Source: Nitrosotalea sp.
Lineage (GTDB): Archaea; Thermoproteota; Nitrososphaeria; Nitrososphaerales; Nitrosopumilaceae
Direction of reading: 5' to 3'
Assembly: GCA_050749105.1 (NCBI GenBank)
Contig: JBOGQT010000042.1
Coordinates: 967-64,966 of the forward strand
Length of the DNA: 64,000 nt
The notes under the pieces were generated by a model. The model was not told the origin of the DNA, ran no database searches, and saw only the letters and a list, made by a program, of their open reading frames with translations. Numbering within the stretch: the first letter of the stretch is position 1; each line of letters begins with the position of its first letter. The translations under genes and the position numbers were made by a program. This document shows positions 1-24,629 of this stretch, piece by piece.

Positions 1-170
1 TTAATCTCTGTTCCATGAAATGTACCTGATATCTTGTCTAATAAACCGGTGTATTGAAATTCACATGACAATCAAGTAAGAATGCGGTCTACATTAGTCA
101 GCCAGTAAGATTCCAATGCACAAAATACGTAGACCGCGTTATTTTGTACTATTTTAACACCATCTGAGGA

Positions 171-1289: not shown

Positions 1290-1451
1290 GTCATCTGATA
1301 AAGTCAAAAATTTAAGGCGTAATTTTCCCCTTAAAAAATAACAAAAAACACCTTCTGATAACATTGGAGGTTTGGATTGCAATTCTGATAATCATATTAT
1401 CTCTTTAATTACTCTGACGAGAAACTGTCATCATCAAGTACAGGTGTTATA

Positions 1452-1865
1452 ATGAGTACAAGTCTAAAGCCTCCTTTTAATGAAGAGACCGCACGAGCCA
1501 AAGTAAAAGCTGCTCAGGATGCATGGAACACCAAAAATCCGGAACTTGTAGCAAAGGCCTACACAATAGATTCTCAGTGGAGAAATCGTACAGAATTCTT
1601 TAAAGGTCGCGATGCAATAATTGAATTTCTCAAGCGCAAGTGGGCCAAGGAGCTTGACTATAAACTAATGAAAGAACTGTGGTGCTATACAGGCAATCGC
1701 ATATCGGTGCGTTTTGAATATGAATGGAGAGATGCTGACACCGGTCAGTGGATGCGCACTCATGGCAATGAGCACTGGGAATTCTATGAGAATGGCCTGA
1801 TGAGCAGGAGAGACATGAGTGCCAACGATTACCCAATCAAGGAATCAGAAAGACGTTATCGCTAA
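1452..1865 (+). CDS. DUF1348 / NTF2-like (SnoaL-like) family protein
   Basis: 137 aa. The pattern [56 protein letters not shown] is typical of this family. Confidence 0.65.
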
Positions 1866-1905
1866 CTATATTCCATCTTTTTAAAGAATCTGTGTGATGT
1901 GATAT

Positions 1906-2928
1906 GTGTTACGACTTGTCATTGCAGTTGGAATAATCATGGTCCTGTTGTTTTCTTCGGTTGCATATGCGATAGGATTTGACAACAGCTTTGAAAGATT
2001 GGTCATTGAAAAACAAAAAGAATATCCATCATGGTATATGGGAAAGGGAATAGCTCCAGGTCAGAGTTTCACTTATCACATTTGTGATCGTACCATCAAG
2101 CCAACATTAAACGGCGCTACCACGTGCTATCAGGCAACACTTGACTTTGTATCATTGTTACAGGATCACACGGGGGACATCTGGATAGTACAGGCAGTAT
2201 TCACACCTGACGGTTCTAAAAGCCAATGGCCTGCCATACTGTATATCACTGAAGACTTTGGCACGATAACTACGGACGGCTCCAGCATGAATTATGCTAC
2301 ATCGCTCTCACACACGTTACTGTATCTTCAAAAATATGCAAATACGTTCAAGCCACAGACCTTGGAGATTGGCAGATCGTGGGGGTTTGTAGATGATTAC
2401 GTATCCCCAGTACCACAACTGACTGTTACCATGTTTACCTCAATCGATACAGGCTCCAACTCTACCGGCGTTTACGAGGTTGGATTTGATGTAGTAAAAG
2501 ACAACACCATATACATAAAAGATGGATTTCCATTCCCAATTGAGCAGACAATTTATGATTCACAAGGATATAGTGCCGACCCTCCAATCCTTTACCAGGT
2601 CAAGTTAGAAACAAACAATGTACAAAATGGTATCTATCAGACCATTGATGTTAAGGAATTGTGCTCCAATCCTCTTTTGTATGGTCAGGTTCCTGCCGGT
2701 ACAATGCCACAAAATACAAACAATGTCAACAAGACACAACTTGTCAAGACGTTGTCTTCAATAAATCAGACTGGTAACTTTTTACCAACCGGCAATCTAA
2801 CCCAAACTCTACAAAATGATACCACGCCCTTTAATCCGAACTACACCAGACCATTGAATGTCACAAACGAGCAGCAGATCCTAAAAGAATTGAAATCACT
2901 AGGAAATTTGACAAACTCAACCAGTTAA
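1906..2928 (+). CDS. secreted or membrane-anchored protein, Asn/Thr-rich C-terminus
   Basis: GTG start, N-terminal hydrophobic segment LVIAVGIIMVLLFSSVAYA, many N-x-T/S sequons near the C-terminus. Confidence 0.5.
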   Translation: MLRLVIAVGIIMVLLFSSVAYAIGFDNSFERLVIEKQKEYPSWYMGKGIAPGQSFTYHICDRTIKPTLNGATTCYQATLDFVSLLQDHTGDIWIVQAVFTPDGSKSQWPAILYITEDFGTITTDGSSMNYATSLSHTLLYLQKYANTFKPQTLEIGRSWGFVDDYVSPVPQLTVTMFTSIDTGSNSTGVYEVGFDVVKDNTIYIKDGFPFPIEQTIYDSQGYSADPPILYQVKLETNNVQNGIYQTIDVKELCSNPLLYGQVPAGTMPQNTNNVNKTQLVKTLSSINQTGNFLPTGNLTQTLQNDTTPFNPNYTRPLNVTNEQQILKELKSLGNLTNSTS

Positions 2929-3216
2929 TCTTTTGTACCCTTGATGTTTGATTATCTTCTGGACTACCTCGTCTGCATTTTTGGCATTAAACTTGACATC
3001 ATACTCTTCTTTTCCTTCTGTCCATGAGATCAAAATCATCTCTTTTTTAATTTCTTTTATGAGTATGATGTCATCATAGCTTAGCTCAAGTGCAAGACCC
3101 TTTCCTGAAACTTCCAAGGCAATGCCGGTATTGAGCAAATACAGTATTCCCGAACCCATCTTGCTCCAAACTTTTATCTTGTCAAAAATCTCCTGTCCCT
3201 TTGTCAGGCCAATCAC
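2917..3216 (-). CDS. small hypothetical protein
   Basis: 99-aa ORF, no clear motif. Confidence 0.3.
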   Translation of the reverse strand: MIGLTKGQEIFDKIKVWSKMGSGILYLLNTGIALEVSGKGLALELSYDDIILIKEIKKEMILISWTEGKEEYDVKFNAKNADEVVQKIIKHQGYKRLTG

Positions 3217-3285
3217 GTATTACAAATCTGTATGTCATAAAAGGCTCTTCTCAATTCCTTAAATGATGTACCATGATTTGGAATC

Positions 3286-3624
3286 ATGTCACTTCCGCTT
3301 GCAATTGCAGTAGCAATAATTGTTATCGTTGGCATTGCAATGATACTGTATGTCGAGAGTCAAAACGTATCCTATATGCAAAAGGCAAACAAGATTGATA
3401 CCTTACGCAACAACAAGGAAAAAGAGACTGCTATTGCTTCCTACTCGGGAAACACACTTGATATCAAGAATCCAGAAAACAATCCAATCAACATAAAATA
3501 TATCCGAATTTTAGATGATCAAGGAAATCTCATAGAAAGAATTCCATACAATGCGCAGATCAAGCCCTTCTCTAACTCCACTCTGAATTTTACCGGCGTG
3601 GTTCCCTCACAATATCTAAAATAA
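3286..3624 (+). CDS. small membrane-anchored hypothetical protein
   Basis: N-terminal TM segment LPLAIAVAIIVIVGIAMILYV. Confidence 0.4.
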   Translation: MSLPLAIAVAIIVIVGIAMILYVESQNVSYMQKANKIDTLRNNKEKETAIASYSGNTLDIKNPENNPINIKYIRILDDQGNLIERIPYNAQIKPFSNSTLNFTGVVPSQYLK

Positions 3625-3695
3625 TCCAAGATCTTGACGGTGAGTCATCTCATCATGCCATACATCTTTATATCATACCATATTAATAATATAGT

Positions 3696-3950
3696 ATGAC
3701 GAAGCAAAGACGTACGATTGCACTTTCTACAGAACTAGACGGTGTAATAGGCTCGCTTGCTACACGCAAAAAGATGAACTATTCCGAATACGTCGAATCC
3801 AGACTAAAGCTAGTTCCAGAGATACTAAACGAATTGAAACGACTCCAGAATATGCCTGAGGATGTGCCTCCAATGGTCAAAGGCAGCCTACGGGATGCGC
3901 TCAAGGTAACAGATGACATTGAAGCAGAGCAAAATAATCTTGTAGCCTAA
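3696..3950 (+). CDS. ribbon-helix-helix (CopG/Arc-like) DNA-binding protein
   Basis: N-terminal RRTIALSTELDGVIGSLATRKKMNYSEYVESRL fits a beta-strand/helix/helix RHH pattern. Confidence 0.45.
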   Translation: MTKQRRTIALSTELDGVIGSLATRKKMNYSEYVESRLKLVPEILNELKRLQNMPEDVPPMVKGSLRDALKVTDDIEAEQNNLVA

Positions 3951-3952
3951 AC

Positions 3953-4402
3953 TTAGGCCAAATTCTTTTCCATCTTTGTTAAAGTACCGTAAACTGGGTC
4001 TATTACTATGATCTCTTTTTCAACATAGCCCAACTTTTTGTAGTATGAGATCCTGTTTTCGACTGAATACAAGACCAGCTTTTTGTAATTGAATTGGCGT
4101 GAAATGTCTTCTGCCAAGATGATCAACTCGGCTCCGGGCTTGATGTCTGGGAGAGATGGATCTCTATTGCGCTCAACCAATTTGATCTCAAAATGAGTAC
4201 CCCAGTCCCTTAGAACAGTGAAAGCCAGTATGTCATCGTTCAACTCTCTTACTATGACATAGAGATCTTTTTCATTAATCTCAACCAAGTATGACAGATC
4301 TATTTTGTTGAGATCTGAAAATTCATTTTGAAACTTTTTGATGCGGTCATTTTCATCTATAAACCTAAAAGGCGGTTGAAGAGAAATAATTTTTCTTGCC
4401 AT
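3953..4402 (-). CDS. GNAT-family N-acetyltransferase
   Basis: 149 aa. The C-terminal KKLVLYSVENRISYYKKLGYVEKE region looks like the acetyl-CoA-binding/beta-bulge part of GNAT folds. Confidence 0.6.
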   Translation of the reverse strand: MARKIISLQPPFRFIDENDRIKKFQNEFSDLNKIDLSYLVEINEKDLYVIVRELNDDILAFTVLRDWGTHFEIKLVERNRDPSLPDIKPGAELIILAEDISRQFNYKKLVLYSVENRISYYKKLGYVEKEIIVIDPVYGTLTKMEKNLA

Positions 4403-4463
4403 TAATCTGTCAACTCAAGATTTGAATGTGTAACTGCTTAAAAAACAATCTCTCATTATTTTT

Positions 4464-6815
4464 GTGCAAAAATTAGCGCTACTTCTTTTAGCTCTGACAG
4501 CAAGTATGGTATTCAGTGATGCGTCTGCAACACAGATTCAAATCGTGACAGACCTTGGCAATGTGTTTACAGTGCAAAAGACATCACCTTCTGATACCAG
4601 CAATAATACCAACAATAATATCATTTCAGGAGCAGGACTTGGAACTGCGGCAAGAATCCAAACGGTACAGCCACAGGGAACACTCGTTTACGGTTCTGGA
4701 TATATAGGAACCACATCTCCAATTCAGCCGTATGTTTCAATTCCGCAAGGAACAAACTTTGCGGCATTGATACAAAACAATGACAACTCTGTATCATTGC
4801 CCATGCCGGAATTTTACAGCACGTACCATTATGCCAACGGCCAGCTGGTACAGGAGGCAGGCCCAGCTAACATACTGTCATTTACTGATGCCAAGACACT
4901 AAGCGGTAATCTCTCTCCCACACTTGGCTCAAATGGCATACAGGTCTCTGCCAATCCGTCTGGAAATATAGTCATGAAGATGAATAGTCTTGCGGGAAGG
5001 CAGGTAATACTTCGTGGAACAATACCAACTGGAGATTCTCTGCAGTATGTCCTGTCAGACCCATCAGTTGATCTTACAAAGCTGCCATATGGTACCACAA
5101 ATGGCTGGACTCTTGCAAACTCTCCTGCGTCATTTTCGTTTTCTAATTACAGGCCAACATACAGCTCGGCTTGCGGATATGTCAACCCCTACTATCCGCG
5201 TTATCCGTGGTGGCCAGGCTATTGGGAGTGCTGGCAGTATCAATCTGGTTCCGTTCCAACATCAATGGGCGCATCAGTACCGCTTGATTTTACGGTACCT
5301 GATGCAAAGGGACTGGACGCATATCTTCAAGCAACAAGTTCCCACAGCTACAAATACTGCTACGCCCGCTACGCATGCGGATGGCGTACAGACTATACCA
5401 CCAGTGACACTTCTGCCTCAATCAGCGGTTATCAGACAAGCAACGGGTTTCATGTGACAGGAATCAGTTATTCGAGTTCAAACTACAACGGGGTATCAGC
5501 ACCCTCCAGTGCAGTCTTTGTGATATATGACAAGGCCCCCTACTTGCAGCTCCTAAACTTTGGCAGCAACTTTGAGCAGACCTACACATTTCCAAACGAC
5601 AACAGGCAACTGTATCTGATATCCACCCAGCCAAACGCAGGTGTTCTTGCAGCATCTGCACAACCGTACGATCCAAACACATTCTCGTATCTTAAGATAA
5701 ACAACCTTCCGCCAAACACTCCGTACGAGATAGTAAAGAATGGCATGGTGGGGGCAGCAGGCCTTACGCCGTCTGATGGCAGTCAAGTGATTTTTGACAT
5801 ATCCCAGATAGGGTTTCAGACAACGGACCAGTCGCCTGGAGGCACGCTGATACTATTTCCAAACTCCTTGTGGTACCGTGGTACCGTCACGTCCCTTGTA
5901 CTTGATACAATAAACAAAAACTCGTTTAACTATGACGGCCCATCACAGATTCACATTCCGTTTGCGTTCATTCGAGTTCCAATACCGGCAAAGATGGCAA
6001 TCAGCAATGTATCAATAGATGATACCATAGGTGGTACCATCAAGGTGCCTTACTTGGCAGGAGAGTATGAGCCAGGTACTGCTTTATTGATACCCACACT
6101 TCCAGCCATGAAAGATGTGGGATTTTCTGCCAACGGTACCCCGATGAAGATTGCAATAGCTGATGTCATAGGAGATCCGGGAGTTACAGTATTTTCAGGA
6201 AACAGCGCTTCAGACTCTCACTACAGCCTTACAGCGGCGGTATCAGCAGACGCGGGAACTGACGGCGAGGCAACGGTGATTGCCACACATGACGGCACCC
6301 TCAACGGTATCATCTCTCTTACGGTATCAGCAAGTGCCCATTACTATGACGGATCCTCGACCCTGACAGTTTACGCCAAGACATATGTTAACGGGAACCT
6401 TGTTGGAACAAAGATGCTGTACACATCACAGCCTCCTGCCGGATACTCTTCGCAGGAAATTACAAGTTATACCATAACCGACAATCCTCAACAATACGGC
6501 AGCTATGGCATCGCGCAGACAAACCCGTATCCGTATGCGGTCAACTCGTACAACATTTCCAACCTGCAAGTATCAGGAACCGTAACCGTGCAGGCCCACA
6601 CCGGAGACCTTGTAGAGTTTGAGGTATATGCAGACGAGAGCGCAAAAAGCAGCCTTGTAGCTACATCGCACATATCAGGAGGCTGCGGATATCTTACTAC
6701 CGACGTAAACACTGGAAGGGAAGTAGGGATTTTTTGTACCACGATACCAACCAATTACGTCAGCGAATCATCAGCGCAGGTAAGCCTTGACGAGGGCTAC
6801 ATTCTGACGGGATGA
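4464..6815 (+). CDS. large secreted Ser/Thr/Gly/Tyr-rich protein, function unknown
   Basis: 783 aa, GTG start, signal-like N-terminus LALLLLALTASMVFSDASA. Markedly GC-richer than its neighbours. Confidence 0.6.
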   Translation: MQKLALLLLALTASMVFSDASATQIQIVTDLGNVFTVQKTSPSDTSNNTNNNIISGAGLGTAARIQTVQPQGTLVYGSGYIGTTSPIQPYVSIPQGTNFAALIQNNDNSVSLPMPEFYSTYHYANGQLVQEAGPANILSFTDAKTLSGNLSPTLGSNGIQVSANPSGNIVMKMNSLAGRQVILRGTIPTGDSLQYVLSDPSVDLTKLPYGTTNGWTLANSPASFSFSNYRPTYSSACGYVNPYYPRYPWWPGYWECWQYQSGSVPTSMGASVPLDFTVPDAKGLDAYLQATSSHSYKYCYARYACGWRTDYTTSDTSASISGYQTSNGFHVTGISYSSSNYNGVSAPSSAVFVIYDKAPYLQLLNFGSNFEQTYTFPNDNRQLYLISTQPNAGVLAASAQPYDPNTFSYLKINNLPPNTPYEIVKNGMVGAAGLTPSDGSQVIFDISQIGFQTTDQSPGGTLILFPNSLWYRGTVTSLVLDTINKNSFNYDGPSQIHIPFAFIRVPIPAKMAISNVSIDDTIGGTIKVPYLAGEYEPGTALLIPTLPAMKDVGFSANGTPMKIAIADVIGDPGVTVFSGNSASDSHYSLTAAVSADAGTDGEATVIATHDGTLNGIISLTVSASAHYYDGSSTLTVYAKTYVNGNLVGTKMLYTSQPPAGYSSQEITSYTITDNPQQYGSYGIAQTNPYPYAVNSYNISNLQVSGTVTVQAHTGDLVEFEVYADESAKSSLVATSHISGGCGYLTTDVNTGREVGIFCTTIPTNYVSESSAQVSLDEGYILTG

Positions 6816-6935
6816 AATCAGCGAGTTTTATCAGACGTTGCACAACAGGGACAAAATGAAATCCTTATGAAACATTTACAGATTTTGATGATTTTTCAAT
6901 ACAACCTCGATTATGAAGTTCAAATTTGGTCGATC

Positions 6936-6947
6936 CCATGTCATTGA
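6936..6947. repeat. 12-bp direct repeat CCATGTCATTGA (left copy)
   Basis: Identical to 8469-8480 and abuts the cassette E1 terminal inverted repeat. Confidence 0.85.
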
Positions 6948-7078
6948 GGGGGTAAAGACAGCGGAGGCTCATTTGACCTTTTTTGTTCGTAATTTTTTTT
7001 CTTGTTCTAATCTTTATGCGCAAAAAAACATCGTAATAAACATTTAAACCGTCAAACTTGAGAATTACAATACGGATA

Positions 7079-7396
7079 ATGGATTCTAATAAAGAACCTT
7101 CAAAAACTGAGCCGTTAAAAGAATTCTTCCAATCTAAAGAAAATCTAACTCGGTTTAATGAATTAATGATGGATCTAACTACCCAAATATTCAATGGACA
7201 GATTGAACCTTTAGACGCTTATTCCGAATTTATTGGAATATATCAGAAAGTATTTCCCAAGTCCTCTGATCACCCCATGGTTAGAGAAATACTATTTGAC
7301 AGATTTCAAACATATTTGTTAATTTGGATCCTACGCGAATTAGGACGAGTAAAACGAAATCAGGTATCGAAGCGAAAACAGTCTAACAAATCATAA
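7079..7396 (+). CDS. hypothetical protein (E1 cargo)
   Basis: ORF 7058-7396, with the likely start at MDSNKEPSK. Its upstream part would overlap the cassette end. Confidence 0.35.
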   Translation: MDSNKEPSKTEPLKEFFQSKENLTRFNELMMDLTTQIFNGQIEPLDAYSEFIGIYQKVFPKSSDHPMVREILFDRFQTYLLIWILRELGRVKRNQVSKRKQSNKS

Positions 7397-7403
7397 CCCG
7401 TAA

Positions 7404-7793
7404 TTAATGAATAAATTTTGAAGCTACTATAAGGCCTACAATAGCAGATACGGCTATACTGCCAATTTTGATCGCAGTATCTATTTTCCACTTTCTATGT
7501 TCTTTTCGTTCCTTTTCCTCAACATCTTTTTTCTCTTGTTCGCTGGCATGTGCATCCTTTATGATGTCATGAGTAACAGTTCTAGGTGCGTAATATGGTA
7601 TTTGGGGTGATTCTGTTTTAGGCTTGGATAGTTTCTGTAGTTTATCGATAACATCAAGACCCTTCTTGGTAGTATCTAGGAATATGTTAACATCATCCAT
7701 TGTTATATCCTCTTCCTCCTCACATTCGCAATCGTCTAAGAGTTCTCCGCAATCAGGACAGAGTTCCTCCTCGTCATACTTTTTCCTTGGCAT
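7404..7793 (-). CDS. acidic Cys-cluster protein with C-terminal TM anchor (E1 cargo)
   Basis: Likely start MPRKKYDEEELCPDCGELLDDCEC; C-terminal TM segment IGSIAVSAIVGLIVASKFI. Confidence 0.45.
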   Translation of the reverse strand: MPRKKYDEEELCPDCGELLDDCECEEEEDITMDDVNIFLDTTKKGLDVIDKLQKLSKPKTESPQIPYYAPRTVTHDIIKDAHASEQEKKDVEEKERKEHRKWKIDTAIKIGSIAVSAIVGLIVASKFIH

Positions 7794-7899
7794 AACGATC
7801 TGTAGATATTGTTGCAAATAAATCATGATTATAGAAAGATGAATAAGTCAATGCCAATCTCGTTGAACTATTTTCAAACTTCCTGCATAGTTACACAAT

Positions 7900-8325
7900 C
7901 TACATTTTTCTTTGGGTTTCACTTACTTTATCGTAAAGTTCCTTCATGGATATATCGTGCATTTGTTTTGATTCATCATCAAAACCATACGTAACATCAA
8001 AAACGATTCTAATTTCAGTCACTCTTTTACCATGGTTCTTACCAAAGTCAGTAACTTTAGCAAATACATGGTAGCTACCATCTCCAAAACCGGTCTCCGA
8101 AGTAATAAAATTTCTTGGTTTATTTGTTGTATCTTCTATCGTTTCTATTTTGTCAAAAAGTGGAAATTTTAATTCTTCTTGTCTTTTACACCATTCTTGA
8201 TATTGATTGTCAGATAGAATGGCCATTGGATCGCCTATTATGACACAACCTGAGTCGATATAGATCGTACCTATTTCTTTCCATTCACTTTTTGATTCCT
8301 CATCTGTCTTTCCAGAATCATTCAT
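7900..8325 (-). CDS. hypothetical protein resembling DUF4241 (GFGDGSY motif) (E1 cargo)
   Basis: 141 aa with SGCVIIGDP and ETGFGDGSYHVF motifs, recalled from the DUF4241 family. Not verified by search. Confidence 0.4.
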   Translation of the reverse strand: MNDSGKTDEESKSEWKEIGTIYIDSGCVIIGDPMAILSDNQYQEWCKRQEELKFPLFDKIETIEDTTNKPRNFITSETGFGDGSYHVFAKVTDFGKNHGKRVTEIRIVFDVTYGFDDESKQMHDISMKELYDKVSETQRKM

Positions 8326-8468
8326 TCTAGAACAAGCACCTACATATTTTTAAAATTATCATCGCGTTTGATCTTGTTGTTCACCTAAGAAAACTTTTCA
8401 ACAAATCATAACTTTCGTCAATTTCTAGTCTAAAAAAGGTCAAATGAGCCTCCGCTGTCTTTACCCCC

Positions 8469-8480
8469 CCATGTCATTGA
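8469..8480. repeat. 12-bp direct repeat CCATGTCATTGA (right copy), junction between E1 and E2
   Basis: Identical to 6936-6947. It sits between a CCCCC run (8464-8468) and a GGGGG run (8481-8485). Confidence 0.85.
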
Positions 8481-8529
8481 GGGGGATATAGTTAGGACTA
8501 GATTTTGCACTAAAACAAACTTTGATACT

Positions 8530-9252
8530 TTATGCCTTCTTGACAGAAAGTTTGACGTCTATGTTTGTAGATTCTGAATTTGTATTATCTATGACTATAT
8601 TCCAGACTCGAGTCTTTGGTACCTCAAATTTTAGTGAGTATCTAGTAACTTGTTCACTTTCTAATTCATAGTTAAAATCATCCTCTTGCTCAAATCGTCC
8701 AAGATTTCTGTTATCTAGAACAAATATGTTGACTGGTAGATCGGAACTGATTTTGCCTGTCACTAGATCGCCTTCTTCAAAATTATAGCCATATGTTTCA
8801 AACATATGATCGTCCAACGCTTTGCGTTCGTCTACAAGTTCTTCTTCTTTGCCAGATTGTATTTCTTCAGTAGGTTCTATCTCTCGAACAATATAGTTGG
8901 CTACCTTATCACATGCATCTCGAATATTGCCTTTTGTAAATCGCTTCTGTTCCATATGAAGAAGCATAACCCCAACCTTTGCACCCTCTTCTACAAAAGG
9001 AATGATGTCAATTCCTTCATTTATTGCAAAACCTACCTCTTGGTCTACTGATGGTGAGGGGTGATCTTTTGTAATTATGGCTATTAGAGCATCTGATTTT
9101 TTTATCGCATCATGAATCTTTTTTGAGAGTGGTTTTCCGAATTGAACATCATGCTCTGCAGTATAGAATTCTATGCCTCTTACGCTTAAAGCCAATGTCA
9201 TTTGTTTCATAATTTCTGTATCTGCAAATGGATAACTAATGAAAACTCGCAT
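8530..9252 (-). CDS. TIR-domain protein with C-terminal all-beta domain
   Basis: N-terminus MRVFISYPFAD...IHDAIKKSDALIAIITKDHPSPSVDQEVGFA fits TIR_2-type topology, with a Glu at the usual catalytic position. Confidence 0.65.
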   Translation of the reverse strand: MRVFISYPFADTEIMKQMTLALSVRGIEFYTAEHDVQFGKPLSKKIHDAIKKSDALIAIITKDHPSPSVDQEVGFAINEGIDIIPFVEEGAKVGVMLLHMEQKRFTKGNIRDACDKVANYIVREIEPTEEIQSGKEEELVDERKALDDHMFETYGYNFEEGDLVTGKISSDLPVNIFVLDNRNLGRFEQEDDFNYELESEQVTRYSLKFEVPKTRVWNIVIDNTNSESTNIDVKLSVKKA

Positions 9253-9289
9253 TTTTTTCTCTTATCATAATTATTAATTGGTTATAAAT

Positions 9290-9305
9290 TAGATTTTGCA
9301 CTAAA
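9290..9305. repeat. internal copy of the 16-nt TAGATTTTGCACTAAA motif
   Basis: Identical to 8499-8514, which is part of the E2 left end. A diverged inverted copy lies at 11964-11979. Each copy lies at the 3' end of a minus-strand gene. Confidence 0.7.
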
Positions 9306-10113
9306 TAACGTCAGTTTGTTGCAAAGTGATTACTCTGATATCCAACGATTCACAAACAACTTCGATAAATGCATCACTTTCTTGACATAAAATGGTAACT
9401 CTTGTTTTTCCCAAAGGTTTTGAATATAGTTTACAAAAAATTGCTCTATATCCAATTGCCTGTCCTAATGCTTCCCAATTCAGTCTTCGTTTGGCTTCAA
9501 TAATATCGTATGAACCATCTTTGGCTACATGTAACATATCCATGTACTTTGCAGATGTGTAGGCAAATGATTTGATGAAGTTTCTTGTAGATTCGTCTGT
9601 TGCAGAGTCTGGTTCTATTGGGTTAACAAGAGGATATTCTCTCTTAATTTCTTCTGTATAGCCGTATTGCGTTGCATTTTTTATGAAGTCGACAATTAAT
9701 TGGTCTTCTGGTAAATTTTTTGCCGCTTCGTTTAGATTGTTCTCAACAATATCGTTTACATATGTAGGACCTTGAGAAATCAAGTTTTGTAGTAATTGTT
9801 CTTTTTCCCATGGAAGTGTATAGTAAATAATTTCCTCAGAGTCATCATAGATGCCAAGAACGCCATTTACATAGATATTTCCGCTATTTGATCTAAGAGT
9901 AGTTACTCCTCTACCAGTCCGTTTTTTAAGCATATTTCTATTTTTAAGAAATTCATTACGGTATATCTCACCATCGTCAAAATTTGAGATTATTTGATAG
10001 TCTACCTTCCAGATTTCCTTTATCTTGTTTAACATTTCAATTATTTCAGAGTATTTTGTATGATCATTTTCTGTCCAAGAATCTCCCTGTCTTTGCCAAA
10101 GAGTAATTTTCAT
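9301..10113 (-). CDS. PD-(D/E)xK nuclease, RecB/Cas4-like C-terminal domain, unknown N-terminal domain
   Basis: C-terminal YMDMLHVAKDGSYDIIEAKRRLNWEALGQAIGY gives the D ... ExK ... QxxxY motif series. Confidence 0.6.
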   Translation of the reverse strand: MKITLWQRQGDSWTENDHTKYSEIIEMLNKIKEIWKVDYQIISNFDDGEIYRNEFLKNRNMLKKRTGRGVTTLRSNSGNIYVNGVLGIYDDSEEIIYYTLPWEKEQLLQNLISQGPTYVNDIVENNLNEAAKNLPEDQLIVDFIKNATQYGYTEEIKREYPLVNPIEPDSATDESTRNFIKSFAYTSAKYMDMLHVAKDGSYDIIEAKRRLNWEALGQAIGYRAIFCKLYSKPLGKTRVTILCQESDAFIEVVCESLDIRVITLQQTDVI

Positions 10114-10521
10114 GGATCTAAAGAGAAGGGTTATTCATTAAAATCTTGGTAAAAAATAAGAGTGAAGAATACTTTCTATTCAGATTTCTTCTTCTACTGT
10201 AAACGACTAGTAGCACGCAAGAGACTAATCTCCGGCATATTCGTCATTGTTAGGATTCAGCTGATCTGCGTGGTTGTCCAAGTCAGACTGGTGATCCATA
10301 GTTATCATTTCTTCCCTCCTTTAGCTGCATTTGTTGCTCTTATGATGAAGCCTATATCGCTTGAAGTTTTAGCAATTCGCGCAGCAGCGGTAGAAGTCAT
10401 TTTTTCTGTCATGTATTACTTTGGTACAATCTAGTATTAGTGGCTCAATTGTTATTATCATGCTACCAAAAAATGGCAAAAAACACAAAAATAAGTAGGT
10501 CAGTGTGCTAAATCAACCTAC

Positions 10522-11244
10522 ATGTCTAAATCCAATATAGAGCATCCCTCTAAATTTAGGAATCAGATCATAGAGGCAATCCAAGAATTTCCGCTCATAC
10601 AGCATAACCAGTTATTGGATTATTTAGTAAAGCACAAAGGCTACATGGCAAAAAGGACTGTAGAAAAATATCTTAGAGAATTGATTAATGAAAAAAAGAT
10701 TTTTGAATACAAGGAAGGTAAAACAAAGAAATACGATTTACCATCTGCTTTTGGTTTAACAGAAAAAATGATGAAGAAGCGATTTGACAAGTGGATATCT
10801 GAAATAAGAAAAAGTATTGGAAAGATTGAAAGAGATTATCCAAAATACAACATATACATGAAGGTAAGCGCTCCTGAATATTTACAAACATTATACAAAT
10901 CATTGCAATCAGCCCATTACGCACATGAACACCAAGAGGAATACAGTTGGGAGGATCTTGGAACAATGGAAAATATTCTGTATAATGAAATTTTCAAATC
11001 TCCATATGCACTTACAGATGATTCAAAAATGCAACAAAGGCATGACGCTGCAAAACTTCGTGATGAAATAAGGAGATTAAAAAAAGAGGATCATAGCATT
11101 TACAAAAAATTGAAACGTGGTGTTAAAAGACCAGAGGAAAGAGAGAAGTTGTTTGCTACAAGTAATAAGATAAACAAAGAAATAGCAACAGCATTTGAGG
11201 CTCTAAAAAAAATTCACGGTACACTAGTGAAAAATAAAGATTAG
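10522..11244 (+). CDS. winged-helix DNA-binding protein with coiled-coil C-terminus (E2 cargo)
   Basis: The N-terminal IIEAIQEFPLIQHNQLLDYLVKHKGYMAKRTVEKYLRELINEKKIFEY pattern looks like wHTH. Confidence 0.45.
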   Translation: MSKSNIEHPSKFRNQIIEAIQEFPLIQHNQLLDYLVKHKGYMAKRTVEKYLRELINEKKIFEYKEGKTKKYDLPSAFGLTEKMMKKRFDKWISEIRKSIGKIERDYPKYNIYMKVSAPEYLQTLYKSLQSAHYAHEHQEEYSWEDLGTMENILYNEIFKSPYALTDDSKMQQRHDAAKLRDEIRRLKKEDHSIYKKLKRGVKRPEEREKLFATSNKINKEIATAFEALKKIHGTLVKNKD

Positions 11245-12010
11245 AATGATAAAAATTTACAAAGATTTCTACATCTATTCTAAACTATTTTACATCTATT
11301 TTCAAGTATTCCAACAAGGTTGATTTTGATGATTTAAAGAGAAAATGGTATCTTACATAAAGGAACAATTTTGAGTAGCATTTTCTTCTTTAGTGTAAAA
11401 GGGATGCCAGTTCTCACCTTTTTTTGCCAGTTTTTCTATACTTGGTTTCACGACAGACCAGGATACTTTCCACATCCCTTTCCCTTGAGGCTCTATTTTC
11501 ATCACACAGAGTCGGTCCTATCCATTCAGTGTCATCCGCTAAAGGATTTTGTTCAGGAGATACTTCCACGCAGAAAATGACGAGATACTTGACCTAAAGT
11601 CTTACGACTAGCAGGGTTTTTCGCCTAGGGACATTACATTATGCATCTTAGGAATAAAAATATTTAATCTAAAATCAAAAAAAAGCTCAAAAAGCAGCAG
11701 CGCGTAACCAAATCATGATCCATACGATCACATGGTACATTACAAAAAGTGGGTTGCCAGAAACAGTTCAGATTGAGGTACCAGAAACTAAGGTTCCACT
11801 AAACGTGATTATTCCATACGACCAAATCAAAAGTTAAACAGATGATTGTTGTTAGTGGATTGATCCACAACCCTCATATTTTTTTTAGGTTTTGGCCTTT
11901 TACGAGAAGCGTCGGATTTTTGTGAATAAACAGAGGGATTCTATTTTTTATACCTAATGTAAATAGTGCGAAATCTTCAGTCCTAACTATATCCCCCGCA
12001 TAGTATGGAA

Positions 12011-12480
12011 GGGGTACAGACATGGTCATACAATTTGACTGTGAATGAAAGCTATAACGAGTATTATGATTTGACTGAAAAATAGGAAAAAATCAAAATT
12101 ATTAAGAAAGAACCATGTACAAATATTATTGAAAATTAACAGTGATACAATTAACGTTATCGAAAGCTCCGACGAACTTTTAAATCAAATCTTTTCAGAA
12201 CGTCAAAGGTCACTGCAAACTAAGAAAATTGAACCAAAATTAGAGTTGTTAATCAAGAACCTGCTAGAAAACCTACGTTCTGCCTTGGATTATCTTGCAA
12301 ATCAAATAGCAAAGGAAAATGCTTGTAATGGTAATAAAGTATCATTTCCAATATATTCTCAAACTAGTGATAAATTCCAGCAATTTATGAAGGATAAATT
12401 TCCTAATTTAGAAAAAAAGAATACAGAACTTTTCGAGAAAATTGAGTCTATTCAATACTATAACAATCAAGAAGGAAACG
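12011..12480. mobile_element. possible third, truncated cassette (E3)
   Basis: GGGGTACAGACATGGTCATACAATTTGAC at 12011 resembles the E1 end (15/26). Base composition switches abruptly at about 12480. Confidence 0.3.
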
Positions 12481-12557
12481 AATGGATGAAGACAACCAGT
12501 CACAACGCGATCAGTACAGGAATTCTGCCGCATCCAACGCCGCCGTGTTTGCAATAG
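12129..12557 (+). CDS. hypothetical protein, probably truncated or chimeric at its 3' end
   Basis: TTG start. The AT-rich body ends at about 12480, and the last 25 codons run into GC-rich DNA. Confidence 0.3.
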   Translation: MKINSDTINVIESSDELLNQIFSERQRSLQTKKIEPKLELLIKNLLENLRSALDYLANQIAKENACNGNKVSFPIYSQTSDKFQQFMKDKFPNLEKKNTELFEKIESIQYYNNQEGNEWMKTTSHNAISTGILPHPTPPCLQ

Positions 12558-12706
12558 CTGTCATCAATGAACTCTCCAATCTGACCCGTTCGGAAAAGAC
12601 CGAAGTATTGCATGAGATCCACCGCGTCCTTGCAAGGTCGCATGTTATGGAGTTTGCAGGTATTGCCGGAATAATAGCCTCGTTGCTCCCAATAATTTTC
12701 CATTAA
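12482..12706 (+). CDS. small hypothetical protein with C-terminal hydrophobic tail
   Basis: 74-aa ORF in the GC-richer core, with a competing antisense ORF. Confidence 0.25.
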   Translation: MDEDNQSQRDQYRNSAASNAAVFAIAVINELSNLTRSEKTEVLHEIHRVLARSHVMEFAGIAGIIASLLPIIFH

Positions 12707-12769
12707 TTTTTATTTCTCAAAGGGAACTTTTTGCGCATTAACGCGACCTGAATCTGGCATTTTGCAAGA

Positions 12770-15349
12770 TTGAGCCCGAAATACGACCATGATAGTACCC
12801 GTCCCCCCGGACTCCCACCTGTTAACCACTTTTTAAGATACACCTCATTTCAAGTCATGAGCTCAGGACGATCAACCATTACAGTACTTGGGTTTGATGA
12901 CAATGGCAATGCTGTAGGAATACCAAGAGAAGAACAGATTCACACAGGAATCTTTGGCGAAGTAGGTTCAGGAAAGAGTACGGTTGATACAATCATGATA
13001 AACCAGAACATAAACCGAGAAGAAGGATTTCTTGTGCTTGACCCGCACGGCTCACTTGCTCAGGATGTATTACGGATGATTCCAGACTCAAAAAAGGACC
13101 GTGTAATCTACATCAGCCTTGACGCAGTAAGACAGTGGGGCAAGACTGTCAAGATAAATCCCCTTGAGGTCAAGACAGGAGACGACAGATATGTTGTTGT
13201 CATGAATCTTGTAAATGCACTTCGAAACATTTATCGAGACTCTTGGGGTCCGCAGCTTGAAGCATTACTAAGAAATGGTGCAAATGCACTGGTTGAGATA
13301 GAAGGCTCCACTCTGAGAGATCTCGTAAAGATAATAACAGATGACAGGATGCGCTCGATATATATCAACAAGGTTGCAAACAGGGATGTAAGACACTTTT
13401 GGAATGTCCTATTTCCACAACAGTACCAGAGGGATGCAGGGCGCTCGGCATACAACAAGCTAGACAAGATCCTGTCAACTCCACAGGTTGCAGCAATGCT
13501 GGATGCATCCCAGTCTACAATTGATTTTGCGGACATCTTAGAGTCCGGAAAATGGGTGATAATAGATCTATCCACTGGAGGCTCTGATGATGTGATATCA
13601 TTTGCGGGAACGATACTAATCAACATGGTCTATGTAGAGGCCAGAAAAAGATTTAGCAGGACTGACATTTCTCCAAAGCCTTTTTTCATGTATATTGACG
13701 AGGCTCATCTCTTTGCACCCTTTGCACTTCGTGAGCTGCTAAATACCATGAGGAAGGCAAACGTCAAGGTTACAATCACGGCCCAGACAATCAACACATT
13801 TCCAAGAGAGTTTGCAAAGGAGATATCTGCACTTGTAAGAACCATTGTCTGCTTCAAGGTTGATACCGAGACTGCAAGCATGTTCAAGACTGTAATGCCG
13901 GTACCGGTAGAGACCCTGACATCGATGACGCATGGTAGATTTGCATTTTACTCGCAGGGACATACACCGTTGTCTGGCCTTCTCAAGGCATTTCCTATAG
14001 TTGACAGAAAAAGAGACTGGATGGAACTTGCAAGATACAGCATGGAACGGTATGGCGAGTCTACCTCACTTCAAAAATATATCATGCCAACAAAGACGCA
14101 AAATGAGACACCGCAGATAACACCGCTTGAGGCTGCAATCTTGCTCCTATTGTACAACGAAAACATGGACATGACAAAAGAAGAGATCTATGATTTTGTC
14201 TCTAAAATGTTTCAAGTAGAGAAGCGAGATGTATTTGAAAAACTCGATGACATTTTGGTAAACCATATGCGGCTGGTTGAACGCAAAAATGTTACTGTAT
14301 ATGATGGTGATGGAAAACTTGCCACGCGATATGTGCTATCAGTTCTTGCATACAATAGTTTTTTTTCACAGGCTGCAATGGGAAGACGCGCGGGCTCTCC
14401 TCTACATCTTGCTACCATATTTATGATAATGCGTATGCAGCAAAAGGCCTTCAAGTTCTGCATTCCAGACCTTGGAGACAGAGGAGAACAAAGGCCGGAC
14501 CTCTTGATCTTTGAGCCACAACAGACACAGGATAAAGGCAAGACAATATCTTATGATCCTCTACACTGGTCTGAAAAGATAATCGCAGTAGAGGTAGAGA
14601 CGGATCCGACAAAACATGAATCTCAAGTAGTTGAGAATTTTAGGAAAAACTTTGATCTTGGGTACGACATATGGTTTGTAGTATTTTCTCAAAATCACAA
14701 ACAGTATATCATGGATACAATGAACAAAAACGGAATTGACCAACAGTTCTACAACATAATACTTGTTCCGCCGGAATCAGTAGAATGCATCTCCAACGTA
14801 CAGAACAACTCTGTTACTCATCTTACTCCAGAGGAACTTGAAGTATACAATGTGCTAAAAGATGGAGGAACGGTACCATGGATTGCAGAAAAAACACGCT
14901 TTTCGTCCTATGATGTAATGGGCATACTATGGAAGCTTGAACAAAAAGGAATAACAGAACGTGGGTATGCTGAGACAAAAGAGACAGAGCATGATCCTGT
15001 GTCAGGAAAGAAGACAACCGAGACCAAAAGGCAGGAATATTTTATTCCAACAGAAGAAGCTAGAAAACTTGTAGAATCTCCGAATAGATCTGCCGTAAGC
15101 GTAACAAATAACAAAACAGAAACTCCACAAAAGACAGAGTCGATAGCAGAAGGAAATAAAAAAAACGTCATGGAGAAACCTGCGTTACAGGAAGGGTTTG
15201 ACTTTACACTGCTTAGCGACAAGGGACTAAAGGATCTTGTCACGAATCCAAAGTACGGCAGTCTTGCAAAAAAACTTCTTGAAAACCGTGGAAATTACGT
15301 ATCAATAAAGGATGGAAAGGTAAAACTGAGAAAGAAGGCTAGGAAATGA
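12770..15349 (+). CDS. HerA/FtsK-superfamily (VirB4/VirD4-like) ATPase fused to a PD-(D/E)xK-like and a wHTH domain
   Basis: Walker A GEVGSGKST, LVLDPHGS, Walker B FFMYIDEAHLF. Later motifs are RPDLLIFEP...IIAVEVETD and a wHTH-like LTPEELEVYNVLKDGG...ILWKLEQKGITERG. The start may be the MSSGRS codon at 12857. Confidence 0.7.
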   Translation: MSPKYDHDSTRPPGLPPVNHFLRYTSFQVMSSGRSTITVLGFDDNGNAVGIPREEQIHTGIFGEVGSGKSTVDTIMINQNINREEGFLVLDPHGSLAQDVLRMIPDSKKDRVIYISLDAVRQWGKTVKINPLEVKTGDDRYVVVMNLVNALRNIYRDSWGPQLEALLRNGANALVEIEGSTLRDLVKIITDDRMRSIYINKVANRDVRHFWNVLFPQQYQRDAGRSAYNKLDKILSTPQVAAMLDASQSTIDFADILESGKWVIIDLSTGGSDDVISFAGTILINMVYVEARKRFSRTDISPKPFFMYIDEAHLFAPFALRELLNTMRKANVKVTITAQTINTFPREFAKEISALVRTIVCFKVDTETASMFKTVMPVPVETLTSMTHGRFAFYSQGHTPLSGLLKAFPIVDRKRDWMELARYSMERYGESTSLQKYIMPTKTQNETPQITPLEAAILLLLYNENMDMTKEEIYDFVSKMFQVEKRDVFEKLDDILVNHMRLVERKNVTVYDGDGKLATRYVLSVLAYNSFFSQAAMGRRAGSPLHLATIFMIMRMQQKAFKFCIPDLGDRGEQRPDLLIFEPQQTQDKGKTISYDPLHWSEKIIAVEVETDPTKHESQVVENFRKNFDLGYDIWFVVFSQNHKQYIMDTMNKNGIDQQFYNIILVPPESVECISNVQNNSVTHLTPEELEVYNVLKDGGTVPWIAEKTRFSSYDVMGILWKLEQKGITERGYAETKETEHDPVSGKKTTETKRQEYFIPTEEARKLVESPNRSAVSVTNNKTETPQKTESIAEGNKKNVMEKPALQEGFDFTLLSDKGLKDLVTNPKYGSLAKKLLENRGNYVSIKDGKVKLRKKARK

Positions 15350-15491: not shown

Positions 15492-16742
15492 TTACGAACC
15501 TGACTTTTCTTTCAAGACTTTTACAAGCATCTCTTTTAGTTCGTTGTAATCTTTCTTGAGATCGGCCACATCTTTGGCATAGTTTTCAATTAACGTTTCT
15601 TTGTCCTGGCCACTTGCCTCCCTCTGGGCCATCTTGATTGCTACCTGCTCATCAATCACATAGCCACACTTGACACATCTCTTTACGCCGATAGTGTTCT
15701 GCTCGCTGCACCTGGGGCATGTCTTTAGAGTCAGCTCCCTGACGCTTTCCTGTTTTAACAATCCGTGCTCCTTGAGCACGGCCTCCTCTAGATCCGACTC
15801 GCTCAGGTGAACGTAAACATCCATCATATCCGTTCCTTTTTTCCAGTTGCCAAACTTTTTGAGTATCTGGTCTGGGTGCTTACGCGCCACGTCCGTAAGC
15901 TTGGTATGCCTGAACAGATAATTCCACACCTTCTTTTTTATGCCAGCCTTTTTTGCAGCTGATTTGACAAGCTTGCGCAAGTATCCGTAACCAAGAATCT
16001 TCTTTGTTTGAAAAGACCACCAGAGGGGAGCGTCAAGATCGTCTTTGTATGGATGCTGTGAGATCCACTCCAGCAAAGGTCTGTATGAGAGTAACATAGG
16101 GATTGTCTTCTCCCCGGTCTTTCCAGTGGTGGATATGACTGCAATCTTGTCCTTGAAAAGCACTCCGCCTACTGTCATGTTCAGCAGCTCTCCTGGACGA
16201 AATGCTCCCTCGTACATGCATAATACCATTGCCCTGTCCCTGATGGAAAACCTGGATACGATTGAGATTGCATTTATTAGAGATTCAATCTCTTCTACTG
16301 TGAGCAGGTCACCTGGTTTTATCTCCCTCTTCCTTCCGAGCTTGACAAAGTTTTCAGGTCTTATCCACGAGACCTCCTCGACATAATCCTTCCCATCTCT
16401 CTTCTCCCCTATCTCTTCTGCTTTTGCAAAGTGTACCAGTCTCTTTAGCGTCTCCGCATATGCACGGTTTGTCTTGCCAGCGTACTGGTCTCCTGTTATG
16501 TTCCTCAATGCTTCCTTACAGTCATCCCTTGTCAGGTCCCCAAGTGGGATCTTCGTCTTGTCAAACCACTGCAGTATGCGCGGCAGCCTGCAGCCATAGT
16601 AGACAACCCTGCCTTTTGAGAGACCATGGTCTGACAGGGCATCAAGGAACCTTGATGCCGCCTGCCCGTTACCTGAACTTGCAAGCCCCCTCTTGATGGT
16701 CTCTATCCTCTTGGTGTAGTTGTAAATCAGGTCGCTTGTCAT
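15492..16742 (-). CDS. tyrosine recombinase/integrase with C-terminal zinc ribbon
   Basis: Box II-like LFRHTKLT...GTDMMDVYVHL (H-x-x-R ... Y) and CPRC...CVKCG. The start is taken at MTSDLIYNY, because the longer ORF reads through the tRNA. Confidence 0.85.
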   Translation of the reverse strand: MTSDLIYNYTKRIETIKRGLASSGNGQAASRFLDALSDHGLSKGRVVYYGCRLPRILQWFDKTKIPLGDLTRDDCKEALRNITGDQYAGKTNRAYAETLKRLVHFAKAEEIGEKRDGKDYVEEVSWIRPENFVKLGRKREIKPGDLLTVEEIESLINAISIVSRFSIRDRAMVLCMYEGAFRPGELLNMTVGGVLFKDKIAVISTTGKTGEKTIPMLLSYRPLLEWISQHPYKDDLDAPLWWSFQTKKILGYGYLRKLVKSAAKKAGIKKKVWNYLFRHTKLTDVARKHPDQILKKFGNWKKGTDMMDVYVHLSESDLEEAVLKEHGLLKQESVRELTLKTCPRCSEQNTIGVKRCVKCGYVIDEQVAIKMAQREASGQDKETLIENYAKDVADLKKDYNELKEMLVKVLKEKSGS

Positions 16743-16815
16743 CCTGACTGCAATTCCACGGCTTGGCTTTAAGGAAGGTTTATGATTTTGTTCATCCGGC
16801 GCCGAACTTGGAAGA

Positions 16816-16902
16816 TGGCGCGGGGAGTGGGATTTGAACCCACGGGTCCTTGCGGACATGGGATTAGCAATCCCACGCCCTACCAGGCTAGGCGACCCCC
16901 GC
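16816..16902 (-). tRNA. tRNA-Ser (anticodon GCU), CCA encoded
   Basis: 87 nt: acceptor stem GCGGGGG/TCCCCGC, anticodon loop TTGCTAA, long variable arm GTCCGCAAGGACCC, T-arm GTGGG-TTCAAAT-CCCAC, 3' GCCA. Confidence 0.9.
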
Positions 16903-24433: not shown

Positions 24434-24565
24434 TTTCCTTAGATACTCACTAAGAATTACTCTTATCACTTCGGGCACAGTTTCTAACATTCTCTCCTTT
24501 CGTTCCTTCTCAAGTGCTTTTTCCATCTCTTCAGGTATTGAAACCATGAATCGCTTCATTGCCAT
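24425..24565 (-). CDS. small ribbon-helix-helix protein, divergent from transposase 1
   Basis: MAMKRFMVSIPEEMEKALEKERKERMLETVPEVIRVILSEYL fits an RHH pattern. The start is taken at 24565. Confidence 0.45.
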   Translation of the reverse strand: MAMKRFMVSIPEEMEKALEKERKERMLETVPEVIRVILSEYLRKSN

Positions 24566-24629
24566 ATACTTATTGATACCTATCGATATATTTAATAATA
24601 TCGCTATGTATAGTATCAATAGATACCTA

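Follow-up and report, generated by a model that had tools for sequence, protein, structure and literature searches.

Casposons are transposons driven by Cas1, from which the adaptation module of CRISPR is proposed to descend; until now they have appeared as rare, large and self-contained elements, together with a few tandem pairs and decayed solo terminal inverted repeats (TIRs). Here, we analyze a 64,000-nucleotide stretch of a Nitrosotalea sp. contig (JBOGQT010000042.1 of assembly GCA_050749105.1; "the window"), in which three units that we call E1, E2, and E3 lie head to tail from position 6920 to about 12800. This array very probably consists of tandem casposon-type elements, inserted by a Cas1 integrase (casposase) like those of family 2 at one site that mimics the 3' end of a tRNA-Pro gene. 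Both types of ends found in the array belong to family-2-like casposons of Thaumarchaeota, and E1 and E2 are non-autonomous, cargo-carrying casposon derivatives without cas1 or polB.

The family 2 casposons, the closest described relatives, include AciBoo-C1 of Aciduliprofundum boonei, casposons of Methanosarcina mazei, and NitNCS1-C1 of Ca. Nitrosotalea okcheonensis, the last of which sits at tRNA-Pro (PMC6563490). The casposase of A. boonei follows a rule by which the motif TCAAATC lies 8 bp upstream of a 14-15-bp target-site duplication (TSD) with CC first (PMC6614799). The TSD in M. mazei, also 14 bp, takes in the final 4 bp of the tRNA and reads CGCA followed by AT-rich sequence (PMC4779613, PMC6977970). 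The units in the window resemble these elements in having TIRs of about 31-37 bp with 3'-CCCC, a 14-bp TSD (which in the family overlaps the tRNA 3' end), a T-loop motif 8 bp upstream, and a CC or CGCA start. Family 2 casposons also prefer tRNA-Pro, and full-length relatives with the ends described here encode Cas1, with a helix-turn-helix (HTH) at its C terminus, and PolB. In contrast, the window units carry neither cas1 nor polB nor any other conserved casposon gene, measure 1.5 and 3.5 kb rather than the roughly 8-20 kb of full casposons, and occupy a landing site that is a tRNA-like remnant and not a tRNA gene.

Tandem casposon arrays are known from Methanosarcina sp. 2.H.T.1A.x and 2.H.A.1B.4 and from Ca. 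Nitrosopumilus adriaticus (NitNF5-C1/C2), and these comprise two full-length, Cas1-encoding units, one of them sometimes inactivated; the window array has three units with two types of TIR, and none has Cas1. Artificial mini-casposons, in which a resistance gene is placed between short TIRs and the casposase is supplied in trans, integrate at the reconstituted target with a TSD and often in tandem (PMC8464041, PMC6614799, PMC9939771), whereas the window units are natural, carry host- or defence-type genes, and recur in metagenomes. Earlier work has thus already described solo TIRs, full casposons in tandem pairs, and family-2 casposons at tRNA-Pro, one of them in Nitrosotalea (PMC6563490, PMC4779613). 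In the literature we provisionally found no account of casposon derivatives that occur naturally, lack cas1, and carry cargo, nor of arrays located at pseudo-tRNA leaders. The features of the array are as follows.

6920-6934, plus strand: leader-like pseudo-tRNA-Pro 3' end, TCAAATT (6920-6926) followed by the eight nucleotides TGGTCGAT (6927-6934)
6935-6948, plus strand: TSD copy 1, CCCATGTCATTGAG, 14 bp, CC first
6949-8467: E1, 1519 bp, no cas1 or polB, with perfect 36-bp TIRs at 6949-6984 and 8432-8467
8468-8481, plus strand: TSD copy 2, CCCATGTCATTGAG, which doubles as the E1/E2 spacer
8482-11996: E2, 3515 bp, no cas1 or polB, with imperfect TIRs at 8482-8512 and 11964-11996
11997-12010, plus strand: E2/E3 spacer, CGCATAGTATGGAA, 14 nt, TSD-like (CGCA, then AT-rich)
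12011-12039, plus strand: left end of E3, GGGGTACAGACA-N10-ATTTGAC, a diverged E1-type casposon TIR
12011-12801: E3, either a solo end or a unit that is truncated or degenerate, with a candidate degenerate partner end at 12782-12801
12129-12557 and 12482-12706: open reading frames (ORFs) of E3, 142 and 74 aa

A sequence-only reading of the window had first described this succession of inverted-repeat-bounded units, and repeat searches and shuffled controls recovered all of its repeats where it had placed them. The E1 arms (6945-6984 and 8432-8471) are 98% complementary across 40 nt in an inverted-repeat search, and their 31-nt core occurs exactly twice in the window against none expected from 100 shuffles. 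The ends of E2, GGGGGATATAGTTAGGACT-AGATTTTGCACTA and GGGGGATATAGTTAGGACTGAAGATTTCGCACTA (reverse-complemented), agree at 19/19 positions, then, after a 2-nt indel, at 12/13, and the junction of E2 with E3 reads CCCC-CGCATAGTATGGAA-GGGGTACAGACA... Window matches to CCCCC-N(10-16)-GGGG are confined to the two junctions (eight overlapping matches against 0.36 expected). Where exactly the elements end was settled by comparison: the base that precedes GGGG differs among 13 related loci, so that the TIR begins with four G and the duplicated target is 14 bp long (6935-6948 = 8468-8481, identical at 14/14 positions). The 12-bp direct repeat that had been proposed does exist, as part of an 18-nt identical repeat, CCCATGTCATTGAGGGGG, at 6935-6952 and 8468-8485, and the inverted repeat of E1 given as 37 bp is present as a TIR of 36 bp starting with GGGG. 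The spacing between elements is exactly 14 nt at both E1/E2 and E2/E3. The array is not an assembly artefact, because contig CDBESE010000042.1 of an independently assembled metagenome-assembled genome (MAG; GCA_974105105.1) reproduces window positions 1-13126, repeats included, at 100% identity. Logan unitigs from the same sample break within the TIRs, which is the expected behaviour where an inverted repeat exceeds the k-mer in length.

The ends of E1 and E3 have GGGGTA-AGACA and ATTTGAC in common at identical spacing, and they are lineage-specific: a scan for GGGGTAMAGACA-N10-ATTTGAC in one genome per prokaryotic species gave 15 matches, 13 of them in Thaumarchaeota. Ends of this type lie 13-14 nt past the 3' end of tRNA-Gly, tRNA-Pro, or tRNA-Ser, or of a tRNA-Pro-like remnant. 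The direct repeats beside them change with the site (CCCATCTTTTTTCA at tRNA-Pro, CGCGCCATTGATTC at tRNA-Ser, CGCATTTAATTTC at tRNA-Gly) while the ends are near-identical, so the repeat is derived from the target and is not a core carried by the element. One relative is in the thaumarchaeal MAG contig JAGWHF010000007.1, where ends of the type GGGGTAAAGACA-N10-ATTTGAC lie at tRNA-Pro between identical 14-bp TSDs, CCCATCTTTTTTCA. The 8-kb stretches inward from each end encode a 413-aa Cas1 (PF01867, E = 1.3e-53) and a DNA polymerase (PHROG 1907, E = 3.8e-18); no additional junction was found in these stretches, and the two ends therefore most likely bound a single insertion. Among solved structures, this Cas1 is best matched by 6OPM, the family-2 casposase of M. 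mazei (E = 3.3e-67), in an alignment that runs through the C-terminal HTH region, and the right TIR of this Cas1-encoding casposon (REEA70) is identical to the E1 TIR at 34/36 positions. In one further locus (L029, 7068-7155), a second copy of an E1-type TIR lies 56 nt inside the terminal one, as a nested or duplicated end.

The ends of E2 lead to the same family. They start with GGGGATATAGTTAG... and finish with ...TATCCCC-3', and they share the tip GGGGATATA and the 3'-TCCCC with the A. boonei casposon's TIR, which reads GGGGATATATATACATCCCC... (tip GGGGATATATATAC...) and in which the 3'-TCCCC is critical (Béguin et al. 2019, supplement, PMC6614799). A scan of metagenome contigs for GGGGATATAGTTAG-N(3-9)-GATTT placed this end type (GGGGATATAGTTAG-N-GATTTTGCACTA) at at least 120 loci, some of them around elements with Cas1 and PolB. 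Among the E2-type matches listed, 12/120 loci have Cas1 homologues or fragments and 8/120 have PolB homologues; the Cas1 homologues are 50-56% identical to the 413-aa Cas1 of JAGWHF010000007.1. One element of about 18 kb on Ga0224508_10001927, from a group of estuarine sediment samples rich in E2-type ends, has both ends of this type, Cas1 (E = 1.4e-58), a PolB homologue, and an ApeA-HEPN gene. A 923-aa protein of locus L074 had no match in PDB, Pfam, or NCBIfam and is identified as a polymerase homologue by 38% identity to the polymerase of L025 (PHROG 1907; weakly PF00136). E2-type ends fall into two classes, one with a conserved subterminal palindrome, ACCCACGTGGAA, just inside the TIR (for example, L039, L042, L053, L085, L090, L094, and L111) and one with GCACTA in its place; the two classes may correspond to the left end and the right end of a full casposon.

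Other copies of the ends around different cargo, which the sequence-only reading had proposed to look for, were found for both end types, and the protein family that accompanies them, inside complete elements, is Cas1. That reading took the ends to be undescribed; they are casposon TIRs, and the transposase they imply is a Cas1-family casposase encoded elsewhere. Its first interpretation, non-autonomous TIR transposons that repeatedly hit the same target, was essentially right, with 14 bp rather than 12 bp duplicated.

In the window, the target reads TCAAATT-N8-CCCATG..., which has the geometry of the casposase rule with T at the last position of the motif. Among 103 ends of the E1 and E2 types, TCAAATY ends exactly 22 nt upstream in 39, and the CCCC of another element lies exactly 14 nt upstream in 22. 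Outside the window, the loci that we fetched for comparison contain 57 leader sites, at which TCAAAT[C/T]-N8 precedes the 14-nt repeat, and 24 junctions with the exact spacings, and the same target geometry is seen at tRNA-Pro, tRNA-Gly, tRNA-Ser, and tRNA-Glu. The geometry of the window and of the related loci matches the published casposase rule. The window site itself retains no tRNA: ARAGORN predicts none at 6920-6934, and the tRNA body is absent. Just upstream lies the following module.

6816-6919, plus strand: intergenic module on the upstream side of the landing site, conserved over about 110 nt with loci L030 and L091

By blastn, this module is 80% identical over 128 nt to L030, from a Nitrosotalea MAG (positions 1390-1516), and 72% identical over 102 nt to L091, from a metagenome. 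The genes farther upstream are unrelated among the three loci despite the shared ~110 nt, and the module has no Rfam match. It may be what is left of an integrative element's att site, or it may belong to a mobile landing pad carried by an element.

Beside these ends, tRNA-like remnants (pseudo-leaders) outnumber real tRNAs. In several loci (L098 at 291-440, L060, L100, L067, and L086), about 12-50 nt beyond a solo E2-type TIR comes a new pseudo-leader, and after it a 14-mer and a further TIR, with a repeat period of 73 nt in L098. Such arrangements suggest that arrays or elements can contain leaders in their interior and may take them along when they move. Two loci, L113 (8540-9798) and L069 (191-1484), encode proteins 37-38% identical to the tyrosine integrase of the window, and the 3' end of each gene directly adjoins a pseudo-leader occupied by an E2-type element, which hints that pseudo-leaders are att remnants of integrase elements.

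What E1 and E2 carry was examined by searches against protein families and defence systems, and their genes are listed below.

7058-7396, plus strand: E1 ORF, 112 aa, no family matches
7404-7826, minus strand: E1 ORF, 140 aa, with an N-terminal Cys-rich motif and a C-terminal hydrophobic segment, no significant family matches
7900-8325, minus strand: E1 ORF, 141 aa, phrog_5209, weak DUF4241
8530-9252, minus strand: E2 TIR-domain protein, 240 aa, Pfam TIR_2 (E = 5e-11) and PADLOC SAVED_TIR-like (E = 1.7e-6)
9301-10113, minus strand: E2 cargo protein, 270 aa, no family matches
10522-11244, plus strand: E2 cargo protein, 240 aa, with a weak winged-helix-like DUF7342 match below the Pfam cut-off

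The 141-aa protein of E1 has only seven homologues among 5.8 billion proteins, and its distant homologues are in chromosomal contexts, at loci without such ends. In the 270-aa protein of E2, a C-terminal D...EAK, noticed by eye only, suggests a PD-(D/E)xK-like nuclease. As the sequence-only reading had stated, no unit encodes a recognisable transposase: no Cas1, PolB, or DDE transposase was found within or adjoining the units. Cas1 was absent from E1, E2, E3, and the whole window by tblastn, Pfam, and NCBIfam, and PolB was absent from the window by tblastn and from E1 and E2 also by Pfam and NCBIfam. The units are derivatives and not autonomous casposons, because neither they nor the window have a Cas1. 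The suggestion that the cargo is defence-like held in part. It fits the TIR-domain protein of E2 and related full or partial elements (L022, L023, L025, L030, and L074), in which SIR2-like, KAP NTPase, HSDR_N-STAND NTPase, TIR-domain, and ApeA-HEPN genes occur, whereas the cargo of other small units is metabolic.

Two such units among the fetched loci are complete, with perfect 14-bp TSDs and no Cas1: one of 2053 bp (L052), with an acetoacetate-decarboxylase-family gene, and one of 4571 bp (L081), with a PolB fragment and HxlR and PNPOx genes. A third (L035, 613 bp) is a pair of TIRs only, with mismatched flanks. Related element interiors recur with unrelated flanks, and between elements the TIRs alone are shared across the 135 fetched loci. 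None of these 135 loci has another copy of E1 or E2; the matches are to TIRs only. Exact-protein look-ups of E1 and E2 led back to the same MAG and to Logan unitigs of its own sample, and to nothing else; a site without E1, whose predicted junction is TTCAAATTTGGTCGATCCCATGTCATTGAGGGGGATATAGTTAGG, appeared neither in these look-ups nor in the fetched loci. Scans of viral contigs for both end types and for Cas1 gave chance matches or none, and blastn of the region against phage and plasmid collections gave no match.

The array can be explained by a simple cycle. A casposase would recognise the T-loop-like TCAAAT(C/T) and attach the element by its 3'-CCCC ends, one to each strand, at points 8 nt and 22 nt downstream from this motif, and gap repair would then duplicate the intervening 14 bp. 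The leader-proximal 14-mer would rebuild the target, so that the next element would land between the leader and the previous element, by the same logic as the insertion of spacers at a CRISPR leader. Under this scheme, E1 would be the most recent insertion, its youth being read from its perfect TIRs and perfect TSD, E2 would be older, and E3 would be a remnant. As E1 and E2 have neither cas1 nor polB, their casposase must come from elsewhere in the genome or the community. Casposases integrate artificial mini-casposons with arbitrary cargo in vitro (PMC8464041, PMC6614799), and mobilisation in trans is therefore mechanistically plausible. The anatomy of the array, the kinship of both end types with Cas1-encoding elements, the target rule, and the lack of cas1 and polB are shown; that the small units travelled in trans and did not shrink in place, the order of insertion, and which casposase acted are inferred. 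We go one step further only tentatively, in proposing as a serious possibility that the casposases of Thaumarchaeota are actively moving cassettes without cas1 in trans and piling them up newest-first at portable pseudo-tRNA leaders. The excess of pseudo-leaders, the leaders behind solo TIRs, and the small units with perfect TSDs elsewhere all point this way, but they prove nothing.

Comparison with two other kinds of arrays helps to place this scheme. CRISPR arrays are alike in that insertion by a Cas1-family enzyme takes place beside a leader, a short repeat is duplicated, and the newest insert is inferred to be leader-proximal. The inserts in the window, however, are cassettes of 1.5-3.5 kb with their own TIRs and a 14-bp repeat, not spacers of ~30 bp, and no cas genes, including cas2 or effector genes, were found in the window; the likeness is an analogy of mechanism and not membership. 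Integron cassette arrays are alike in that variable, promoterless-looking cassettes accumulate at one site with the newest nearest the attachment site. Integrons rely on the tyrosine recombinase IntI and attC hairpins and make no target duplication, and none of these features was found here.

The most serious competing account is that full casposons inserted serially and then lost cas1, polB, and the bulk of their content by internal deletion, in which case neither E1 nor E2 ever moved at its present small size and both are dead. The 4.6-kb unit L081 would be just such a deletion derivative, having perfect TSDs and a retained C-terminal PolB fragment; Cas1 fragments are found at several E2-type loci, no second copy of E1 or E2 was found anywhere, and solo TIRs derived by decay are documented in M. 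mazei (PMC4779613). What argues for movement of small units is that E1 keeps TIRs identical at 36/36 positions, a 14/14 TSD, and three intact ORFs with no trace of Cas1 or PolB, that E2 likewise has no such trace, and that several unrelated small units elsewhere combine perfect TSDs with intact, unrelated cargo. Related interiors with unrelated flanks are also at odds with shrinkage in place. We consider internal deletion unlikely as the origin of E1 and E2, and it stays a live alternative because no empty site, second copy, or cognate casposase was found. The other interpretation offered by the sequence-only reading was an integron-like one, in which small circles were integrated serially by the tyrosine integrase at 15492-16742, each with a palindromic attP around a 12-bp core, in the manner of lox or FRT sites. 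This integrase is indeed the nearest recombinase, 3.5 kb away and adjoining a tRNA-Ser, its homologues lie beside E2-type ends in four loci (beside pseudo-leaders in L113 and L069), and elements with tyrosine recombinases are known to form tandem arrays at tRNA genes (PMC6563490). However, the direct repeat changes between sites while the ends are constant, which makes it target-derived and leaves no element-borne core; the complete elements with these ends contain Cas1, and in L113 and L069 the integrase homologues lie outside the ends; the geometry fits casposase biochemistry base for base; and the window integrase has a tRNA-Ser of its own next to it, at a distance of 10 kb from the landing site. 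Serial integration of circles is therefore very improbable. An origin as miniature inverted-repeat (MITE-like) derivatives of a DDE-type TIR transposon such as a Tn3-like element, unrelated to casposons, we regard as scarcely credible. Inverted repeats of the Tn3 family are ~38 bp and begin with GGGG, a likeness to the GGGG-initiated ends of ~36 bp seen here, and IS6-family DDE transposases do occur in the window at 24.4-27.3 kb. Yet the duplication is 14 bp, whereas Tn3 duplicates 5 bp and IS6 8 bp; no DDE transposase lies within the ends of the complete elements examined, which have Cas1 instead; the sole DDE_Tnp_1 match (L019) falls within the 1.5 kb of interior read from one E1-type end, in an element of which only this end was fetched; and the IS6 copies in the window have ends of a different type, GGTTCTGT...

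Several observations weigh against insertion of the whole array by a casposase as we have set it out. No casposase gene was found in the 64-kb window, and none could be tied to this genome. There is no second copy of E1 or E2 elsewhere and no empty site, and movement of the small units is thus not demonstrated. The landing motif is TCAAATT, whereas the motif tested with casposase is TCAAATC. The 14-mers that flank E2 agree at 8/14 positions (the E2/E3 spacer against the E1 TSD), which a single simple insertion does not predict; the right 14-mer looks like the TSD of a CGCA-type tRNA end, and the difference could have arisen if two E2-type copies at separate sites had later recombined or undergone a deletion between them. 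No convincing right end was found for E3: the candidate inverted repeat 12007-12030/12782-12805 agrees at 18/24 positions, is not significant alone, and does no better than shuffled controls under free local alignment. This candidate end (12782-12801) sits just ahead of a breakpoint between alleles at 12829. Finally, the window joins two MAG contigs within the HerA gene, through a ~300-bp stretch with slight differences between them, and positions 6920-13126 are unaffected.

To the right of the array are the following genes.

12770-15349: HerA/TraG-like ATPase, 859-aa ORF
15492-16742: tyrosine integrase, beside tRNA-Ser
16816-16902, minus strand: tRNA-Ser(GCT), predicted by ARAGORN

MAG contig 19 matches the window from 12829 rightward (the side of HerA, integrase, and tRNA-Ser) and carries a different sequence leftward, so at least two arrangements of the region upstream of the HerA-like gene coexist in the population. 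Left of the breakpoint, contig 19 (L003, 14872-16025) encodes a 244-aa membrane protein with a faint DUF6789 match. A full casposon in this part of the window was considered and rejected, as the 859-aa ORF is the HerA/TraG-like ATPase, the 470-aa ORF is the tyrosine integrase, and tblastn for Cas1 and PolB was negative. The idea that the array lies inside an integrase island was likewise rejected: no attL/attR repeat of the tRNA-Ser was found, only chance matches of 8-11 nt, and one 10-nt match of the tRNA-Ser to the TSD region, without extension, is at chance level. The 3' end of this tRNA-Ser(GCT) (16805-16837, minus strand) is itself an unoccupied casposon target, TCAAATC-N8-CGCGCCATCTTCCA followed by AGTT and not GGGG. 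In the Nitrosarchaeum MAG nzgw8, an E1-type element is inserted at the counterpart tRNA-Ser with the TSD CGCGCCATTGATT[C/T] (L026/L023). To the left of the array, a 783-aa predicted secreted protein (4464-6815) has no Pfam or PADLOC match and a GC content of 47-48% against ~38% in its surroundings; this gene is probably foreign DNA adjoining the landing site. Farther right, IS6-family (DDE_Tnp_IS240) transposase genes occupy 24375-25808 and 26186-27301, and long imperfect inverted repeats that extend to 28.5-31.2 kb indicate more insertion sequence copies or fragments; the IS6 copies have their own ends, unrelated to the casposon-type ends.

Taken as a group, ends like those of family 2 casposons are abundant in ammonia-oxidising archaea, with at least 120 matches for the E2 type, and they bound small units without cas1 or polB whose unrelated cargo includes both defence-type and metabolic genes. 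Units with different types of TIR pile up at one site in the exact geometry of casposase integration in vitro, and most landing sites are short tRNA-like remnants and not tRNA genes. For annotation, the pattern TCAAAT(C/T)-N8-N14-GGGG flags such insertions even where a Cas1 gene is lacking. Should mobilisation of the small units in trans hold true, casposases would be a general delivery system for gene cassettes in these archaea, and the arrays would be a natural system in which the leader-repeat logic shared with CRISPR can be tested. Active stacking at portable leaders, if true, would amount to a Cas1-powered platform for gene accretion that is integron-like in outcome, and to a present-day counterpart of the intermediate that has been proposed to link casposons with CRISPR arrays, with a leader, a short duplicated repeat, and inserts that lack an integrase.

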